A DNA stretch of 64,000 nucleotides from Pseudomonadota bacterium (GTDB taxonomy: Bacteria; Desulfobacterota; Desulfobulbia; Desulfobulbales; VMSU01). Below are positions 5,799 to 64,000 of the stretch, one piece after another. Position 1 is the stretch's first letter, and each line of letters begins with the position of its first letter. The position numbers were made by a program, and so were the translations under genes. The notes under the pieces are model-generated. The model was not told the DNA's origin and made no database searches. It saw nothing but the letters and a program-made list of their open reading frames with translations. The stretch covers positions 1,008 to 65,007 of the forward strand of contig JANNQL010000246.1 in NCBI GenBank assembly GCA_031400755.1. Direction: 5' to 3'.

Positions 5799-8264
5799 TC
5801 AGACGACAATATTGACGAGCTTGTCCTTGACCACGATAATCTTACGGATTGGGCCTTGGCCAAGGTATTTTTCGACCCGTTCATCGGCCAGGGCCATTTC
5901 TTTCAGCTGTTCCTCGCTGGTGCCGACTGGGACCTGTAAGCGGCTGCGGACCTTGCCGCAGATCTGGATGACAATGGTAAGTTCGTCCTCTTTGGCCGCC
6001 TCGGGGTCAAAGGCAGGCCAGGCCATCGTGTCCAAGGACTCGCTGTGGCCGGTCATGCGCCAGAGTTCGGCGCAGATATGGGGGACCATAGGGTAGAGCA
6101 GTTTGATGACGGTGTCGATGGCGAAGCGGACCACGGACGGATGGGCTTGGTCCTGGGTGGTCAGGACATTCATCAGCTCCATGACCGAGCTGATGCAGGT
6201 GTTGAAATGGAAATTATTTTCAATGTCGGTCGAAAACTTCTGGATGGTCTGGTGGGTCTTGCGTTGCAAGAGGCGGCTTTCGCCATCCAGGGTCGTCTCT
6301 GGCGTGGCCTCGGTCTGTTTATTGCTGCTGTTGGCGGCCACGAAGCGGTAGAGTTTGCTCAAAAATCGGGAGGAACCCTCCACCCCCTGGTCGTTCCATT
6401 CCAGGTCCCGTTCCGGCGGCGCGGCAAACAGGCCAAACAGCCGGACGGTGTCGGCCCCGTACTGCTTGACCAGGGTGTCCGGGTCAACGACGTTGCCTTT
6501 CGATTTGCTCATCTTGGTGCCGTCTTTGATGACCATGCCCTGGGTCAGGAGGTTGGTAAAGGGCTCGTCAATCGTCAGGTAGCCCACGTCGCGCATGGCC
6601 TTGGTGAAGAAGCGGGAGTAGAGGAGGTGAAGGATGGCGTGCTCAACCCCGCCGATATACTGGTCCACCGGCAGCCAGTAGTTGGCCGCGGCCATGTCCA
6701 CCATGCCGCCTTGGAAGCGGGGCGAGGTGTAACGGGCGTAGTACCATGATGACTCGACAAAGGTGTCCATGGTGTCGGTCTCGCGGCGGGCCCGGCCACC
6801 GCAACGCGGGCAGGTGGTGCTAAAGAAGCTCTCCATGGTATGCAGCGGCGATTTGCCGGACTGGTCAAACTGGACATCGGTGGGCAGGAGGACAGGCAGG
6901 TCAGCCGAGGCCACCGGCTGGATGCCGCAGGCCTCGCAGGTCAGCATCGGGATTGGCGCCCCCCAGTAACGCTGCCTGGAGATCCCCCAGTCGCGCAGCC
7001 GGAAGGTGGTCTGGGCTTTGCCGAACCCCTTGGCCGCAGCCTTGGCGGTGATGGCCTTTTTGGCCGCCTCATTGTCTATGCCGGAGAATTCAGCGGAATC
7101 AATCAAGGCGCCAGGACCTTCATAGGCGGCGTTGCTCGGCAGCTCACCCGATTCGGGCTGAATGACCGGTTTGATCGCTAAGCCGTATTTACAGGCGAAC
7201 TCATAGTCCCGCTGGTCATGGGCCGGCACCGCCATGACGGCGCCGGTGCCATACTCCATCAGCACGAAGTTGGCGGCATAGATCGGTAGACGTTCATTGG
7301 TAAAGGGATTTAAACAGTAACTGCCGGTGAAGACCCCGGCCTTGTCGAGGACGTCCTCGTAGTTGGCCCGTTGCTTGGCGTTTCTGGTCTCTTCGACAAA
7401 GGTCCGCACCTGCTCTTCCTGGGCCGTGCCCCGGCACAGTTCGTCAAGCAGTGGGTGCTCCGGGGCGATGGACATGAAGGTGGCCCCGAAGATGGTGTCT
7501 GGCCGGGTGGTGAAGATGGGCAGGCGTTTGCTCGAGTTCTCAATGGCGAAATCAATAGAGGCGCCGACGCTCTTGCCGATCCAATGGCGTTGCATGGTCA
7601 GGACCTTATCCGGCCAGCCTGGCATGTTGTCAAGTTCGGCCAGCAGTTCGTCTGCGTAGTCGGTGATCTTGAAGAACCAGCCATTCATCTCGCGCGGCAT
7701 GACCTTGTGATCACAGCGCCAGCAGGCGCCCTCAATGACCTGTTCGTTGGCCAGCACCGTCTGGCAGGGTTCGCACCAGTTGACAGTGGTCATTTTGCGG
7801 TAGACCAGCCCCTTATTATAAAGGTCGATGAAGAATTGCTGTTCCCAGCGGTAGTAGTCGCTGTTGCAGGTCGCCACTTCCCGGTCCCAGTCATAGCTGA
7901 AGCCCATGCGGCGTAACTGGTTCTTCATATAGGCGATATTTTCAAGGGTCCACTTGGCGGGATGGGTATTATGCTTGATGGCGGCATTTTCAGCCGGCAG
8001 ACCAAAGGCGTCCCAACCCATCGGGTGCAGGACGTTAAAGCCCTTCATCCGCTTGTAGCGGGCGATGACATCGCCGATCGTGTAATTTCTGACGTGTCCC
8101 ATGTGAATCCGACCGGAGGGGTAGGGGAACATCTCGAGCAGATAGTATTTCGGCAGGCTCTGGTCTTCGCTGACTTTGAAGGTGGCTTTATTCTGCCATT
8201 CACTTTGCCATTTGGTCTCAATGGCGGCAAAATCGTAAGTAAGGGTTTCGTCGATGGTCATGGG
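5799..8264 (-). CDS. leuS: Leucyl-tRNA synthetase
   Basis: HMGH ([10 protein letters not shown]) and KMSKS (TKMSKSKGN) class-I signatures. I place the start at [11 protein letters not shown] (8264). The 26 upstream codons of the track ORF are translated repeat DNA ([10 protein letters not shown]). Confidence 0.93.
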
Positions 8265-14010: not shown

Positions 14011-14925
14011 ATGTCAGTTTACGTTATTGGGCACAAGAGCCCGGATACCGATTCCGTTGCCTCAGCAATTGCCTACGCCGCCTTGAAAAAGGCGCAGGGC
14101 GTTGACGCGGTCCCGGCCATGCAGGGCGAATTGAATCCTGAGACCAAATTGGTTCTCGACAAATTTGGCTTTGCCGCCCCGGAGATTGTCACCGATGCCG
14201 CCGGCAAGCAGCTCATGCTGGTTGACTTCAGCGATATCGCTCAAGGTCCGGCGAATATGAGTGATGTAGTTGAGGTGGTTGATCATCACAAGATTGGCGA
14301 TGTTACCACCAACAATCCGATCTTCTTCTACGCCCAGCCGGTAGGTTGCACCTGCACGGTTATCCACGAGATTTTTAAGACTAACAATATTACGATTGCC
14401 AAGGGCATAGCCGGCATTATGGCTGCTGCTATCCTGAGCGATACCGTTAATTTTAAGTCACCGACCTGTACGCCTGCCGATAAAGAAGCGGTCAAGGCCC
14501 TGGCCGCGATTGCCGGTATCACCGACACCAGCGCATTGTTTATGGACATGCTGAAGGCCAAGTCCGCCATTGATGGCTTGCCGATCAAGGAACTGCTCAA
14601 TCGGGACTACAAGGATTTCGATATGAATGGTAAAAAGGTTGGTATCGGTCAGCTCGAACTTGCCACCCTTGACCAGGCAGCCGGTTGCCGTGCCGGCCTC
14701 GTCAAGGCCATCGACGACTTGCGTAAGGAAGGTCGTCACTCCGTACTCTTCATGCTCACCGATGTCGTTAAGGAAGGCACCGAACTGCTGGTGGCCTCTG
14801 AGGACAATGCCTTGATCGAAAAGGCCTTCAACGCCAAGTTGACCAATGGCGCCATGTATGTCCCCGGTATGATGAGCCGTAAGAAGCAGACTGTACCGCC
14901 CCTGCAGAAGGCCTTTGGCTGTTAA
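14011..14925 (+). CDS. ppaC: Family II (Mn-dependent) inorganic pyrophosphatase, DHH/DHHA2
   Basis: 304 aa; GHKSPDTDSVASAIAYA, VVDHHKIG, good GGAGG RBS. Confidence 0.9.
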   Translation: MSVYVIGHKSPDTDSVASAIAYAALKKAQGVDAVPAMQGELNPETKLVLDKFGFAAPEIVTDAAGKQLMLVDFSDIAQGPANMSDVVEVVDHHKIGDVTTNNPIFFYAQPVGCTCTVIHEIFKTNNITIAKGIAGIMAAAILSDTVNFKSPTCTPADKEAVKALAAIAGITDTSALFMDMLKAKSAIDGLPIKELLNRDYKDFDMNGKKVGIGQLELATLDQAAGCRAGLVKAIDDLRKEGRHSVLFMLTDVVKEGTELLVASEDNALIEKAFNAKLTNGAMYVPGMMSRKKQTVPPLQKAFGC

Positions 14926-15333: not shown

Positions 15334-16887
15334 TTAGTGGTGGTCTACCATCTTGATCCGTTCATCATAATTAAAGTTATCGTCGTGTGACCCGCTGTGG
15401 CAGGTCTGGCAGACGCCAGGGCCTGGTTTCAGGGCCATCGGGTTGGCCTTGGGGTTGCCGATGTGGAGGCGACCGGGGCCATGGCAGGTCTCGCAGCCGA
15501 CCTCGCGCCTGGCTTCGGTAATAGAGAGGGACTCGGACGCTTGGTCCATGCTTACGCCGGTAACATGGCAGGGCAGGCAGCTCAGGTTGTATTGCTGTTT
15601 GTCCTTCGCCAAGGTCGCGTAGGCGGCGGCGTGTCTGGTCTTTTGCCATGAAGCCAGCTGGGCGGCATGGCATGAGCCGCAGCTGCGAGAACCAAGATAG
15701 GGCGAATCGGTCTTGGTGGCGGTCTCGGCCTGGCGTTGGCCAAGTTTATTGACCGCTGAGTTAAGCGCGTCGACCAGACGGACTATCTCTGGTTGGTCAG
15801 GGAGCGCGGTTTCCATGGCCATGAAGCGGTTTGTGTAGGCAGACGGTTCGCCGGTGCTTGGCCCCTGTTGGTCGAGGGTTTTGCTCAGTTGGTCGATTTC
15901 GCCCCGCAGTTCTTGCTCTTGCGCTTGGAGGGCATGATAGATATTGAGTTGGTCCGGTTGATTGCGGAGGGCGGTTTCCGGGTCTTTGTCTTGCTGGTAC
16001 TTGCTGAGTTGCCAGAGCAGGCGGTCGAGGGCGCCTTTCTTTTTGGCGAGGACTTCGGTCTTCTGGTCTCCCCAACGCTTGCTGGGTTGCCAGTTTATTT
16101 CCATGATACCGATCTGTTTGCCTTGGGGGCCAGTGCTGACCAGGACCGTGTTGTTGATCGGTTCAGGCGAGATGGCATTGGTATTTGCCCCGGACTGGAT
16201 GATCAGGTGGATGCTTGGATAGCTTAGAGCGATCCGTTGGCTGTCGGCGGCAGGTAGGTTGGAGAGGAGGACGACCAGATCATGGGTCTTGTCCACCTTG
16301 GCCAGCAGATCGGGCAACACTTGGTCCCAGGGAAGAATCGTAGCCTCATCGGCTGGGGGTAAAGCGGCAGGTCCGGTCAGGCCGATCACCCCGACCTTGA
16401 CGCCCTCGACATTTACGGTTGTACTGGCCTTAAAGAATGTTTTTTTCGTGGATTTATTAACCAGATTGGCGCTTAACCAGGTGAACTTGGCGTCCTTACT
16501 CAGCATTTGTAAAAAAGCTGAACCTGCGATCAGATCTTGACTGCCAACGCAGACCGCGTTGTAGCCGATCAGGCTGTAGGCCTCAACAATGGCGGCTGCG
16601 GCCATCTTTTCTTGCTCTTCCTGGCGGGGATTGATAGCATCATGCTTAAACAGCAAGGCCCCGGCGTCCAAGGTGAGGTGGGGTCGATTTGCCTCTTTGG
16701 CGATTTTGTTGAATTGAAATGCTTTTTTGGACAGACCGCCCAATTGATGGCTGTGTCAGCCGCAGGGTGCGGTCTCGCCATGTACGTCATTGGAATAGAA
16801 GAGCAGGAGATTTTGGCCTGATTCAGCGGCAAAAATTGGTTGGGCCAAGGAAAACATGGCAACAATAATGAGGGTGGATAATTTCAT
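15334..16887 (-). CDS. Periplasmic degenerate 5'-nucleotidase/metallophosphoesterase-like domain fused to tetrahaem cytochrome c. Contains one in-frame TGA (16756..16758), proposed as selenocysteine at codon 44.
   Basis: Track ORFs 16756..17031 and 15334..16743 share one frame and are separated only by the TGA. ATG at 16887 has a GGAG RBS and a signal peptide MKLSTLIIVAMFSLAQPIFA. NDVHG motif present. C-terminus has CGSCH, CLPCH, CETCH, CQTCH. Confidence 0.7.
16727..16743 (-). promoter_or_regulatory. Candidate bacterial SECIS apical hairpin
   Basis: mRNA UUGGGC-GGUCU-GUCCAA (6 bp including one G.U) starts 12 nt after the UGA. The loop begins GGUC as in the E. coli fdhF SECIS. Confidence 0.5.
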
Positions 16888-17140
16888 GATGACTCCGGTT
16901 TTGTGACCAAAACGCATAAAAAAGGGGAATTGCTCAGGCGAATAGACTTTTAGCCTGTAAGGCTGAAGGCAATGACGTTTGGAATATAATGACTTATATA
17001 AAAAAAGTCCATAGCGCTGCCGGCCCTCCATACTTCCTGCTCAAATGCACCTCTCAAAGATGAGGACAATTGCCTTCGGACAATTTTTAGAACAGCAAGT
17101 CATCACTATCTTTATTTTGTAATTTAGGGAGAAACAGAAA

Positions 17141-17929
17141 TTGGACAAAAAAATCAGGATCGGCGTCAGTTCATGCCTGTTGGGCAACCCGGTCCGTTAC
17201 GATGGCGGCCACCAATATGATCCATTTATCAGCGAGACCCTCGGCCACTTCTTTGAGTTCGTTCCAGTCTGTCCGGAAGCGGAATGCGGACTCGGGGTAC
17301 CACGGGAAACAATGCGTCTGGTCGGCGATCCGCAAAAACCCCGCTTGCTGACGACTGAAACCAATCTCGACCATACCGACAGGATGCTGTCCTGGGCCCG
17401 GCAACGGCTCAAGGAACTGGAGGAAGAAAGAATATACGGGTTCATCTTCAAGAGTAAGTCGCCAAGCAGCGGCATGGAACGGGTCAAGGTCTATCCAAGG
17501 CAGGGTGGTGCGCCGAAAATGGTCGGTGTCGGCCTGTTTGCCAGGGCCTTCATGGAGGCATTCCCAATCCTGCCGGTGGAAGACGAGGGCCGCTTGCAGG
17601 ACATCGGTCTGCGCGAGAATTTTATCGAGCGGCTATTTGTCTGTTGGCGCTGGAGCATCGTCAAAAATGATGCGATGACCGCAAATGCCCTGATTACTTT
17701 TCATAGCAAGCACAAATTGCAAATCATGGCGCGCAGCCAAAGACATTATCAAGTTATGGGCAGTCTGGTGGCCCAGGCTAAAATGAGGTCCCTCAACAGC
17801 CTCTTTGATGAATATCAAACCTTGCTGCTGGATGCCTTGCGTATACTACTGCCAACTGTCAAAAAACAGGAGAACGTCCTGCTGCACACCCAGGGACACT
17901 TCAAAAAACAGCTTCTCCCCCGGACATAA
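17141..17929 (+). CDS. DUF523 + DUF1722 (YbbK/YbgA-like) protein
   Basis: 262 aa, TTG start; IGVSSCLLGNPVRYDGGH and PVCPE motifs of DUF523, helical C-terminal half. Confidence 0.65.
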   Translation: MDKKIRIGVSSCLLGNPVRYDGGHQYDPFISETLGHFFEFVPVCPEAECGLGVPRETMRLVGDPQKPRLLTTETNLDHTDRMLSWARQRLKELEEERIYGFIFKSKSPSSGMERVKVYPRQGGAPKMVGVGLFARAFMEAFPILPVEDEGRLQDIGLRENFIERLFVCWRWSIVKNDAMTANALITFHSKHKLQIMARSQRHYQVMGSLVAQAKMRSLNSLFDEYQTLLLDALRILLPTVKKQENVLLHTQGHFKKQLLPRT

Positions 17930-18261: not shown

Positions 18262-20397
18262 ATGGACAACTCCTCGCTTAAAGATGATCGGTCTTATCTA
18301 ATTCAGATTGTTGATGACGATAAAATCCTCAGGCAGGTTCTCAGTATGGGGATGTCAAAGGCCGGATTTTTTACTTCGGAATCGCAAAACGGTGAGGACG
18401 CTGTCAATGATTTCCAGGAATTGATGCCGGACGCCATCCTCCTAGATGTCATGATGCCTGACATGGATGGGTTTGAAGTCTGCACCAGGATCAGGCGCTT
18501 GCCGGGTGGAGAGCGGGTGCCGATCATCATGCTCACCGGTGAGGATGATTATCAGTCGATCAATCAGGCCTTCAATTGCGGGGCCACTGATTTTGTAGTC
18601 AAACCGATTAATCCGTTGTTGCTCAGTTACAAAATTCGCTACATTATCCGGGCGAACCAGGCGATTAGCGATTTGACCATCAGAGATGTCATGCTGGCCT
18701 CGGCCCATGAAATTGCCCATTTGACCAATTGGGAATGGCGACTGTCCGACAACAGCCTCAGTTGGGGTGAGGGTATGTGCAGGTTGATGGGAATTAAGGG
18801 AGATGATGCCCCCAGGACCTACGAGGATTTTCTCAATCTGATCTATCCGGAGGACCGTACGGCAGTGTCCCATGTCATTTTGCAGGCCCTGGAAAGAAAA
18901 TCAGGCATCTTTTTTGAGCATCGTCTGCTGACTGCTGATGGCATTGAGCTTTCTTTCCGGCAGGACGGGACTATTTTGACGGATGCAGACGGGGAGGCGA
19001 CCAAGATTATCTTCACTTGTCAGGATGTTACCCAGTCAAAGCTCAATGAACAGAAAATAAAATTTCTGGCATACTATGACCGTTTGACCGGACTGCCGAA
19101 CCGCTTTCTCTTTAAGGAGCATCTGGCCAAGGCCCTGGCCAATTGTAAACGTAATTGTCAGTTTCTGTCGGTCATCTTTGTTGATATTGATAGTTTTCGC
19201 AGTATTAATGACACCTTTGGTCGCGAGGTGGGAGACAAGGTCCTGAAGTTGATTTCCTCCCGTTTGCGTGAATGTCTTCGCCGCTCGGACACTGCGGGCA
19301 GTGTCAGCGAAAATGAGATCACCGCCCGTTTCGGCGCCGACGAGTTCGGCATCATCCTTGAGGGACTGAGAGACATGGCGGATGCGGCGATTGTCGCACG
19401 CCGGGTCATTGATTCCCTGACCAAGATGGTCACCTTGGACGATAATGAGATTTTTCTTAATTGCCGCGTCGGGGTGTCAGTCTATCCCGATAATGGCGAG
19501 ACTGTTGATGAGTTGATGAAGAGCGCCGACTCTGCATTGTCAAGCGCCAAGGAACTGGAACGCAACAGCTATCAATTTTATACCGCAGAATTAAACACCA
19601 AGGCCTTTGCCCGATTCGCCTTGGAAAGAAGCTTGCGGAGGGCGGTGGAAAAGCAGGAATTTATCTTGGCCTACCAGCCTCAGGTGAAGTTGTCCACCGG
19701 CAAGGTGACAGGGGTCGAGGCCCTGATTCGTTGGGTCCATCCCGAGTTAGGGATTGTCTCGCCCATGGATTTTATCCCCTTGGCCGAGGATACCGGGCTG
19801 ATTGTGCCTATTGGCGAGTGGGTCCTGCGGACAGCCTGCGCCCAGAGCAAGGCCTGGTCTGATGCTGGACATTTCATAAAGGTGGCAGTCAATCTGTCCG
19901 CCGGTCAGTTCAGGGATGATAAGCTGCTCAGCATGATTAGCGGGGTATTGGCCGAAACTAAGGTAAGGCCGGAGTTGATCGAGCTTGAGATTACTGAATC
20001 CATGCTGATGGACAATATCGAGGGCAGCATTCATCGGCTTGACCAGCTCAGTCAATTTGGATGCCGATTATCCATTGACGATTTTGGCACCGGCTACTCA
20101 TCGCTCAATTATTTGAAGCGATTCCCGGTGGATGTGCTGAAGATTGACCGCTCTTTTGTCAGTGATCTGGCCCATAGTGAAGATGACGCCATGATCGTCA
20201 AGGCCATTGTCACCCTGGCCCATAACCTCAACCTTGAGGTGGTGGCAGAAGGAGTGGAAAGCCGAGAACATCTGACCTATCTTTCATACCTGGGATGTGA
20301 CCTTATTCAGGGCTATCTGGTCAGCAAGCCGGTAGCAGTGGACAAGGTGGAGCACTTCTTCGGGGATTGGACGCTCAACGACCTGGCTACGTCATAG
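18262..20397 (+). CDS. Response-regulator receiver - PAS - GGDEF (degenerate GADEF) - EAL protein; probable c-di-GMP phosphodiesterase
   Basis: 711 aa; LLDVMMPDMDG receiver, RFGADEFGIIL, EALIRW, DDFGTGYSSL. Confidence 0.9.
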   Translation: MDNSSLKDDRSYLIQIVDDDKILRQVLSMGMSKAGFFTSESQNGEDAVNDFQELMPDAILLDVMMPDMDGFEVCTRIRRLPGGERVPIIMLTGEDDYQSINQAFNCGATDFVVKPINPLLLSYKIRYIIRANQAISDLTIRDVMLASAHEIAHLTNWEWRLSDNSLSWGEGMCRLMGIKGDDAPRTYEDFLNLIYPEDRTAVSHVILQALERKSGIFFEHRLLTADGIELSFRQDGTILTDADGEATKIIFTCQDVTQSKLNEQKIKFLAYYDRLTGLPNRFLFKEHLAKALANCKRNCQFLSVIFVDIDSFRSINDTFGREVGDKVLKLISSRLRECLRRSDTAGSVSENEITARFGADEFGIILEGLRDMADAAIVARRVIDSLTKMVTLDDNEIFLNCRVGVSVYPDNGETVDELMKSADSALSSAKELERNSYQFYTAELNTKAFARFALERSLRRAVEKQEFILAYQPQVKLSTGKVTGVEALIRWVHPELGIVSPMDFIPLAEDTGLIVPIGEWVLRTACAQSKAWSDAGHFIKVAVNLSAGQFRDDKLLSMISGVLAETKVRPELIELEITESMLMDNIEGSIHRLDQLSQFGCRLSIDDFGTGYSSLNYLKRFPVDVLKIDRSFVSDLAHSEDDAMIVKAIVTLAHNLNLEVVAEGVESREHLTYLSYLGCDLIQGYLVSKPVAVDKVEHFFGDWTLNDLATS

Positions 20398-62857: not shown

Positions 62858-64000
62858 CTAACCTTTAAGCCCATAGCGATAGCGCAGGTCCTGGCTGAGC
62901 ATGGACGGGATGGCCTGTTCAAAAAAGTCATGCTGACAGTCGACCCCGGCCATGGAGCCGGTGCGCTGATAGGTCATGAAGCGGCAGCCGCCGTAGCACA
63001 GCGGCAGATAGTCGCAATCCGGGCAGCGCTTATCCTCTTGCCAATTATCAAGGTGATGGCTGCCGTCATCCGCCTTTACTCCCTCCCAGACATCGCCGAT
63101 CTTGAATTGTTCCCGGCCTCCCAGAGGCAGGCATTTATAAAGGCTGCCATCGTAATGGACAGAGAAGTTGTCATCAATCATCACCGCGCAGACCTCAGGC
63201 CGCAAGGCCGCTACCTGGTAACCGCGGGCCATGACTTCACCTCGCACATGAAGCGCCGCCTCGATGAACCAGGGTTCGTTGACCGAGCCGCAGCCGCCAT
63301 TAAATTCCGGCGAGGCAAACTGGTCCTTGATCGCCATCACCATGTTGAAACTGACTTTTGAGATCTGCTGAGGCCCCAGGCCCAGCGCTTGCAGCTCGTC
63401 TAAGAGTTTGGGAAACTGCTGATAGTTGTCCTTGGTGAAATTGCCGCCCAAGGTGATTTCTACCAGCCCGCTCACCGCCTGTAGATTCTTGACAATGGCC
63501 GCGAAGCTAGGCCTGCCGTTCTTGAAGGGTCGAAATGAATTGTGGTTCGCGGCCGGGCCGTCGATGGTGACCTTGATCCCGGCCAGGCCATATCTTTTTA
63601 GTTCCTCAACCAGCTTTCTCGTCAGCAGGGAGCCATTGGTGACCAGGTTAAAATCAAAGGTACTGCCACGCGCCTCGGCAAAGGCCTTGAGGTCGCCGGC
63701 CAGGTGGCGAAGGCGCTGGGGATAAAGCAGGGGTTCGCCGCCATAAAAATCAAGGTGAATTTTGTCTTTGCCGCCCCGAAACCGTTCCTTGATAAAGATG
63801 AGCGTCTGCTCGGCAGTGGCGTCGTCCATGACATGGCGGCCCTTGAGTGTCCCCTCGTAGCAGTAGCGGCAGGCGAAATTACACTCCATGCCCAGGACCA
63901 CGGCGGCGGTGACGTTGGGGTTTATGCGGTTCAGCTCGGCGTAGAAGCCCTTTACCTCCTGAAGCTCCTCTTTGCGGTCCGGGACCAGCATGCCGAGGGC
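62858..64000 (-). CDS. Radical SAM / SPASM-domain enzyme (peptide-maturase-like). The 5' end may lie beyond the window.
   Basis: CNFACRYC (CxxxCxxC), FYGGEPLL, DGSLYKC, CPDCDYLPLCYGGC (SPASM). The frame stays open to position 64000. Confidence 0.8.
   Translation of the reverse strand, partial: ALGMLVPDRKEELQEVKGFYAELNRINPNVTAAVVLGMECNFACRYCYEGTLKGRHVMDDATAEQTLIFIKERFRGGKDKIHLDFYGGEPLLYPQRLRHLAGDLKAFAEARGSTFDFNLVTNGSLLTRKLVEELKRYGLAGIKVTIDGPAANHNSFRPFKNGRPSFAAIVKNLQAVSGLVEITLGGNFTKDNYQQFPKLLDELQALGLGPQQISKVSFNMVMAIKDQFASPEFNGGCGSVNEPWFIEAALHVRGEVMARGYQVAALRPEVCAVMIDDNFSVHYDGSLYKCLPLGGREQFKIGDVWEGVKADDGSHHLDNWQEDKRCPDCDYLPLCYGGCRFMTYQRTGSMAGVDCQHDFFEQAIPSMLSQDLRYRYGLKG

Follow-up and report, generated by a model that had tools for sequence, protein, structure and literature searches.

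The in-frame TGA at codon 44 of an UshA-like gene in the window (the whole 64-kb stretch of DNA analysed in this work) almost certainly encodes selenocysteine (Sec) in one 517-residue periplasmic heme protein, as judged from the sequence and its homologues. We put at roughly 90% the probability that this is a single gene of the NCBIfam family NF041198, in which the UGA of codon 44 is read as Sec and a conserved stem-loop would serve as the decoding signal. It adds one more ordinary member to a family that was already known, and is neither a new selenoprotein nor a new kind of system. The practical outcome is a correction of the annotation: the public gene call for the contig is a 469-aa product (P0001) that is cut at the Sec codon and lacks both the signal peptide and the active-site motif, whereas the true product would be a 517-aa selenoprotein.

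Structure of the gene

The elements of the coding region are as follows.

15334..16887, minus strand: complete coding sequence of the UshA-like selenoprotein, 517 codons plus a TAA stop, with Sec as codon 44
16893..16896, minus strand: Shine-Dalgarno-like GGAG, 5 nt upstream of the ATG at 16885..16887, read from the sequence
16828..16887, minus strand: start codon and putative Sec-type signal peptide MKLSTLIIVAMFSLAQPIFA, judged on sequence features
16756..16758, minus strand: in-frame TGA, the predicted selenocysteine codon, residue 44 in P-C-G-U

A frame check of the sequence shows that the ORFs 16756..17031 and 15334..16743, both on the minus strand, lie in one frame, and that only the TGA at 16756..16758 and the sense codons CAC AGC CAT CAA stand between them, followed by the TTG at 16743. 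The joined product has 517 amino acids and reads ...YSNDVHGETAPCG-U-HSHQLGGLSKK around the site, or, from the N-terminus and with the putative signal peptide set apart, MKLSTLIIVAMFSLAQPIFA|AESGQNLLLFYSNDVHGETAPCG-U-HSHQLGGLSKK; its redox-type motif is thus C42-G43-U44. The layout described in the original prediction, namely two same-frame ORFs parted by a single TGA, of which the upstream one supplies the ribosome binding site, the ATG and the signal peptide and the downstream one has neither ribosome binding site nor signal peptide of its own, is borne out. The signal peptide was called from sequence features and by comparison with homologues: a similar hydrophobic N-terminus with an A-x-A-like end is found in all full-length homologues.

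Family membership and homologues

In an HMM search, for which Cys was written in place of Sec, the joined protein matched NF041198 ("UshA_like_PCGU, UshA-like (seleno)protein") with 600 bits (E 3.6e-180) against a curated cutoff of 275 bits. The match runs end to end, from residue 6 to 507 and from profile position 3 to 518 of 519, and the window protein carries all the features of the family: a score above the cutoff, P-C-G-[U/C] after D-x-x-G, and four CxxCH motifs in the C-terminus. No substantive difference from the known members was found: like them, the window protein combines a signal peptide with an UshA-fold domain, the P-C-G-U motif and a C-terminus with four hemes, and the gene shares a Desulfobulbales-type lineage with the named members. 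This lineage is deduced from its relatives, which come from Desulfobulbaceae/Desulfobulbia MAGs. "UshA-like (seleno)protein" is the NCBI name of several of them, including one from the cultured Thiovibrio frasassiensis. A second family of UshA-fold selenoproteins, NF049981 ("UshA-like (seleno)protein family 2"), matched the window protein weakly (43.5 bits, cutoff 140) with a profile of only 262 positions, and its motif is CxxU as opposed to the CxU of the window family.

The homologue set comprised 120 clusters from a large protein collection. Full-length proteins make up 28 of them, and the site corresponding to codon 44 reads P-C-G-C in 27 and P-C-G-S in one. In a further 63 clusters the protein begins precisely with M/LGGLSKK, at the first codon past the stop that can serve as a start, a pattern typical of gene callers that end a gene at the TGA; the truncation seen in P0001 therefore affects more than half of the clusters of the family. 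A metagenome scan keyed on the cytochrome motifs gave mostly distant Cys homologues, and a scan of genome contigs with one protein as query gave 2 loci. PCGC is kept in all distant homologues (22-28% identity, many metagenomes). The suggested comparison of codon 44 among homologues came out in favour of one joined gene with a C-x-U pair: the aligned site is Cys in the 27 full-length homologues, ten other assemblies have TGA there, and the NF041198 match of the 517-aa product points the same way.

The claim that this selenoprotein was previously unlisted was wrong. Besides the curated NF041198 model, the selenoprotein table of Zhang & Gladyshev (2008) has 'COG0737, UshA-like, CxU', for which it counts 76 Sec sequences in GOS next to 92 Cys homologues (PMC2398784), a 2022 review has the entry 'UshA-like protein, COG0737, CxU, WP_013162925.1' (PMC9312934), and COG0737, UshA-like, CxU also appears in a 2026 review (PMC13188914). 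The family is not mentioned in the 2005 Sargasso Sea paper, and 2008 is the earliest listing documented here.

The UGA and its downstream hairpin

The bacterial decoding signal used for comparison is that of E. coli fdhF, whose experimentally defined minimal element is a 17-nt upper stem-loop located 11 nt after the UGA. The window contains a hairpin at almost the same place.

16727..16743, minus strand: candidate bacterial SECIS upper stem-loop UUGGGC-GGUCU-GUCCAA, 6 bp, with a 5-nt loop starting GG

This hairpin begins 12 nt past the UGA, as had been predicted, with 18 nt from the UGA to the loop, and it is the minimum free energy structure in a 71-nt context (pair probabilities 0.71-0.98). 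The proposed likeness to fdhF holds in most respects: both elements are 17 nt long, carry GGUC in the apical loop, lie inside the coding sequence directly downstream of the UGA, and differ in spacing by 1 nt. It does not hold for the next codon, CAC, which had been counted as a further parallel and is not conserved in the family, where CAC, AAA, AAG or AGC is found. Unlike the fdhF element, the stem in the window lacks a bulged U, and the 5-nt GGUCU loop is closed by C-G.

Hairpins of this type, defined as 6 bp with a 5-nt loop starting G[G/U] at 9-15 nt after a TGA, occurred in the window in 10 of 18,011 TGA x spacing trials (7 spacings for each TGA), i.e. at about 0.4% per TGA, so the one found here is more than chance would give. 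The loop (GGUCU, 5 nt), the 6-bp stem and the 18-nt spacing agree with the published bSECIS model, whose energy threshold is -7.5 kcal/mol or lower (PMC13188914); the hairpin alone, at -5.7 to -6.6 kcal/mol, falls short of this threshold. By the same method the fdhF minimal element has -4.2 kcal/mol, and orthologous elements with a lower stem of 2-4 bp have -8.1 to -12.9 kcal/mol. Rfam gave no matches at gathering thresholds in the whole window.

When at least 45 nt of upstream sequence are included, the hairpin is displaced in silico by pairing of AGACCGC (16769..16775) with GCGGUCU (16733..16739). A ribosome paused at the UGA would cover this upstream complement. The 7-bp complement was also considered as a conserved feature and rejected, as other Sec loci have only 4-5 bp there, varying synonymously.

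Comparison of Sec-form and Cys-form loci

DNA was available for 11 independent Sec-form loci (the window, L001, L004, L005, L006, L083, L085, L086, L087, L089 and L090) and five Cys-form loci (L002, L088, L091, L092 and L093). The proteins of the ten other Sec-form assemblies are 37-81% identical to that of the window. The TGA is at the identical codon in all 11, preceded by a conserved in-frame FYSNDxxGExxPCG, and YTG GGC GGT CTG YCC AR (YUGGGCGGUCUGYCCAR in the RNA) follows exactly 12 nt past it in every case. The constraint extends to wobble positions. At the four wobble positions of GGC GGT CTG TCC, compared between the 11 Sec-form loci and four Cys-form loci, changes were seen at 0 of 44 sites in the Sec forms as opposed to 7 of 16 in the Cys forms (Fisher p=3e-5).

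The sole stem changes among the Sec forms keep or improve the pairing. In L005 the closing pair shows a compensatory change of U-A to C-G, and in L086 a G.U pair becomes G-C at the price of a Ser to Pro substitution. A covariation test of the hairpin, in which 97% of cells are paired, did not give a significant result (the observed score was matched or exceeded by 135 of 500 shuffles), because the element is nearly invariant and shows no variation at all in four of its six pairs. What carries the argument is therefore the Sec-specific nucleotide constraint and not compensatory change. We also observed that a SECIS-shaped hairpin is retained in one Cys-form locus, L093. Taken on these sequence comparisons, the reading of the element as an fdhF-like SECIS hairpin is strongly supported.

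ALTERNATIVES

Four other explanations deserve to be weighed against a Sec codon with a SECIS-type hairpin. The one that survives best accepts that the UGA is recoded and supposes that the 17-nt hairpin is not the SECIS element, or only a part of it, either because its invariance has another cause or because the true signal is a larger or different structure. It is true that with four of six pairs never varying the base-pairing itself is not demonstrated, that the energy is marginal, that several loci permit a lower stem of 2-4 bp (AGCC...GGCU), which hints at a bigger element, and that the Cys-form L093 keeps a similar hairpin. However, the invariance is specific to the Sec forms down to the wobble positions, both observed changes preserve or strengthen the pairing, and the position, the GGUCU loop and the size fit the fdhF minimal element. 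They fit the published bSECIS model as well (PMC13188914). All things considered, we find this explanation unlikely.

A second possibility is that the TGA is a genuine stop, so that the locus is a pseudogene, or encodes a leader peptide of 43 aa together with a cytoplasmic protein of 469 aa that is initiated at the TTG at 16743. Exactly this 469-aa product is given by the automated public gene calls, and Sec machinery was not seen in the 64-kb window. Against it, ten further assemblies, with identities as low as 37%, are split at this very codon and keep the upstream piece conserved as protein, and 27 homologues have Cys at the site. Moreover, the downstream piece would have neither ribosome binding site nor signal peptide, yet it contains four heme c sites that need periplasmic maturation, and a stop codon would leave the Sec-specific wobble constraint unexplained. 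A genuine stop thus seems very unlikely.

One could also suppose that an original TGC or TGT was misread as TGA in sequencing or assembly, and that the true protein is a Cys form. A single base separates these codons, and the source is probably metagenome-assembled, a single NCBI contig of 65,681 bp. The downstream sequence speaks against this: the next 15 nt show the Sec-form wobble pattern GGC GGT CTG TCC, which is found in none of the five Cys-form loci, and the closest relatives (L085 with 81% identity, L089 and L001) also have TGA followed by HSHQ, whereas the Cys forms read C-Q/E/R-x-N/K-Q. We regard such an error as very unlikely. Finally, a genome-wide reassignment of TGA to Trp or Gly, for which nothing speaks beyond the in-frame TGA itself, can practically be dismissed, because TGA is the commonest terminator in the window (18 of 44 long family-verified ORFs), and a scan for same-frame ORF pairs split by TGA found no other convincing TGA-interrupted gene there.

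Architecture of the protein and loss of the phosphoesterase site

The joined protein that results from reading the UGA as Sec has two recognizable domains.

16063..16824, minus strand: UshA/5'-nucleotidase-fold N-terminal domain with degenerate metal/catalytic motifs, about residues 22-275
15337..15690, minus strand: C-terminal tetraheme cytochrome c554-like domain (PF13435, E 7.9e-14)
15667..15681, 15565..15579, 15481..15495 and 15397..15411, minus strand: the four CxxCH motifs

Pfam recognises the C-terminal domain only; there was no match to Metallophos (PF00149) or 5_nucleotid_C in the joined protein. The heme domain gave profile matches to cytochrome c554 (1bvb) and to 6i5b, and none of the four CxxCH motifs varies within the family. 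The N-terminal fold was recognized from the AlphaFold model of a Cys homologue, P0007, which is 62% identical to the window protein (pLDDT 85, pTM 0.80). Its N-terminal domain resembles 1ush, CD73 and SoxB (Foldseek E about 1e-16 to 1e-13), and from about residue 277 the model consists of long helices followed by the heme domain. The loop carrying P-C-G-C (residues 37-49) is the one low-confidence segment of this model, with pLDDT<50.

In an alignment to E. coli UshA, the motif I residues D41/H43 are paired with D33/H35, and the P-C-G-U follows immediately, within an insertion of 3 residues. Opposite the catalytic G-N116-H117-E of UshA stands G-S-Q-D. Among 46 family members the His position of motif I is occupied by Q, H, R or L, the N-H positions of motif III are variable, the His of motif IV is N or S, and motif V reads Q-S/A-G; C-G-C/U, Q48, GGL and D74 are invariant. 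The first metallophosphoesterase motif that had been noted at the outset is present in the window protein, but the domain as a whole is without conserved catalytic residues. Because the motif residues vary in this way across the 46 members, the family would appear to have kept the UshA scaffold and not the phosphoesterase chemistry.

It is instructive to compare these proteins with E. coli UshA, human CD73 and Thermus SoxB. The N-terminal fold is the same, and the Asp residues of motif I and motif II are conserved. In contrast, conservation within the family does not extend to the catalytic Asn-His of GNHE or to the His of motifs IV and V, the His of motif I varies, and an extra C-G-U/C insertion is present. 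Furthermore, a helical linker and the tetraheme domain replace the C-terminal nucleotide-binding domain.

Genomic context

Next to the gene, in convergent orientation, is a gene whose presence is shared by several other loci.

14011..14925, plus strand: Mn-dependent inorganic pyrophosphatase (DHH/DHHA2), convergent downstream neighbour (NF003877, 397 bits)

The convergent arrangement is also found in L001, L087, L089 and L090, and a pyrophosphatase gene is nearby in L086. The pyrophosphatase accompanies the Sec-form genes in conserved synteny, by which we do not claim a functional link. RarA is often found upstream of Sec-form loci.

In two Cys-form loci, L088 and L091, the UshA-like gene lies directly downstream, on the same strand, of selD (TIGR00476, 376-378 bits) and of yedF, a 'selenium metabolism protein' (TIGR03527, 196-206 bits). 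The SelD proteins of the two loci are 78% identical, and they therefore represent related lineages and not independent events. The selD-yedF cluster is absent from the other three Cys-form loci and from the Sec-form loci.

In the 64-kb window itself, selA, selB and selD were not found when 20 ORFs, among them every one with a size fitting SelA, SelB or SelD, were scanned against NCBIfam; these proved to be DnaB, transketolase, RlmN, kinases and similar proteins. Searches of the window with SelD and YedF by tblastn gave nothing, and ARAGORN found no tRNA in it. Competence of the organism for Sec incorporation is thus inferred.

Proposed decoding and function

By analogy to E. coli fdhF, the conserved stem-loop would recruit SelB loaded with Sec-tRNA(Sec) during a pause of the ribosome at the UGA. 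The resulting protein would be built of three parts, i.e. a decayed 5'-nucleotidase-fold domain, the C-G-U/C insertion, and the helical linker with the tetraheme c554-like domain. The C-x-U pair may pass through a selenenylsulfide in its redox cycle, with electrons moving between it and the hemes. Because of this architecture, in which a decayed catalytic site, an invariant C-G-U/C motif and a tetraheme domain are combined, the protein most likely acts not as a phosphoesterase but as a thiol/selenol redox enzyme of the periplasm that is wired to its hemes. As to the substrate, our guess is that it would be a sulfur or selenium species.

One may go a step further and speculate that these proteins are not nucleotidases but periplasmic heme-wired chalcogen (sulfur or selenium) redox enzymes in which C-G-Sec replaces the dimetal site of the SoxB/UshA scaffold and which are tied to selenium trafficking. 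The hint of a tie to selenium comes from L088 and L091, where selD, yedF and the Cys-form ushA-like gene form one block. We consider this extended proposal rather doubtful, and offer it tentatively. In the searchable literature we met no mention of a lost catalytic site or of the adjacency to selD-yedF, and no experimental or biochemical work on any member of the family. Such novelty as is left lies only in the uncharacterised biochemistry of the family. For whoever sets out to characterise it, it should be useful that the phosphoesterase residues are unconserved, that C-G-U/C is invariant, and that some of the Cys forms are encoded beside selD-yedF.

Conserved residues of the UshA-fold domain

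The UshA-fold domain of the family (NCBIfam NF041198), which occupies 16063..16824 (-) in the window, is probably not a phosphoesterase, judging from the residues that the family has kept and lost. Alignment A2 shows that the motifs for metallophosphoesterase catalysis and metal binding have not been conserved across the UshA-like family: the His position of motif I is occupied by Q, H, R or L, the GNHE motif corresponds to G[S/G/R][R/Q/L]D, and the His residues of motifs IV and V are missing. The C-G-C/U motif shows no variation in the same alignment.

RNA pairings around the site

The Cys-form gene of locus L093 (P0013) retains a SECIS-shaped hairpin, UUGGGC-GGCUU-GCCCAA (around 6130-6180, pair probability of about 0.8), which lies 12 nt 3' of the TGC in PCGC and may be a remnant of a recent Sec-to-Cys conversion. 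In the window, on the minus strand, a perfect 7-nt complement spans the UGA (AGACCGC at 16769..16775 with GCGGUCU at 16733..16739), and in free-RNA folds with at least 45 nt of upstream sequence this pairing eliminates the SECIS hairpin. The 7-nt complement is not conserved among the other Sec-form loci.

Public gene calls

In the public protein collection, 63 of the 120 homologue clusters (P0001, P0072 and 61 others) begin precisely at M/LGGLSKK, so gene callers systematically shorten the Sec forms. The record of the window's own contig carries such a shortened product (469 aa), and the Thiovibrio frasassiensis protein MDG4476477.1 is likewise shortened, to 483 aa, despite its name "(seleno)protein".

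Genomic context

The following features are discussed here:

17141..17929 (+), DUF1722-containing protein, divergent upstream neighbour of the UshA-like gene
18262..20397, response-regulator GGDEF/EAL protein, next after the DUF1722 protein
62858..63991 (-), geopeptide radical SAM/SPASM maturase (444 bits to TIGR04280, whose cutoff is 400)
Cys-form locus L088, 4129-7554, single strand, selD-yedF-UshA-like (Cys) block (TIGR00476, TIGR03527)
Cys-form locus L091, 2326-5575, single strand, selD-yedF-UshA-like (Cys) block (TIGR00476, TIGR03527)

The DUF1722 neighbour also adjoins the closest Sec-form orthologue (L085), where its counterpart (1293-2246) combines PF04463 (2-thiouracil desulfurase family) with PF08349 (DUF1722). 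The GGDEF/EAL protein adjoins the homologous gene in Sec-form loci L001 and L089 as well. Since the TIGR04280 match begins at profile position 58, the true N-terminus of the maturase probably lies past the window end.

In L088 and L091, selD is followed on the same strand by the selenium-metabolism gene yedF and then by the UshA-like (Cys) gene. The genes flanking this block differ between the two loci; the lineages are related, as their SelD proteins are 78% identical. The Cys-form loci L002, L092 and L093 lack the cluster, as do all Sec-form loci.

Variation at the site and age of the CGC centre

One full-length homologue (P0014, 519 aa) has Ser in place of Cys/Sec at this position (EPCGSQVNQ); it may be an inactive form, or the sequence may contain an error. 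In the distant homologues from metagenomes of many environments (L009-L074, 22-28% identity), a degenerate D-x-x-G motif is still followed by P-C-G-C, and the multiheme C-terminus is retained too, so the CGC centre is older than the Sec-using clade.
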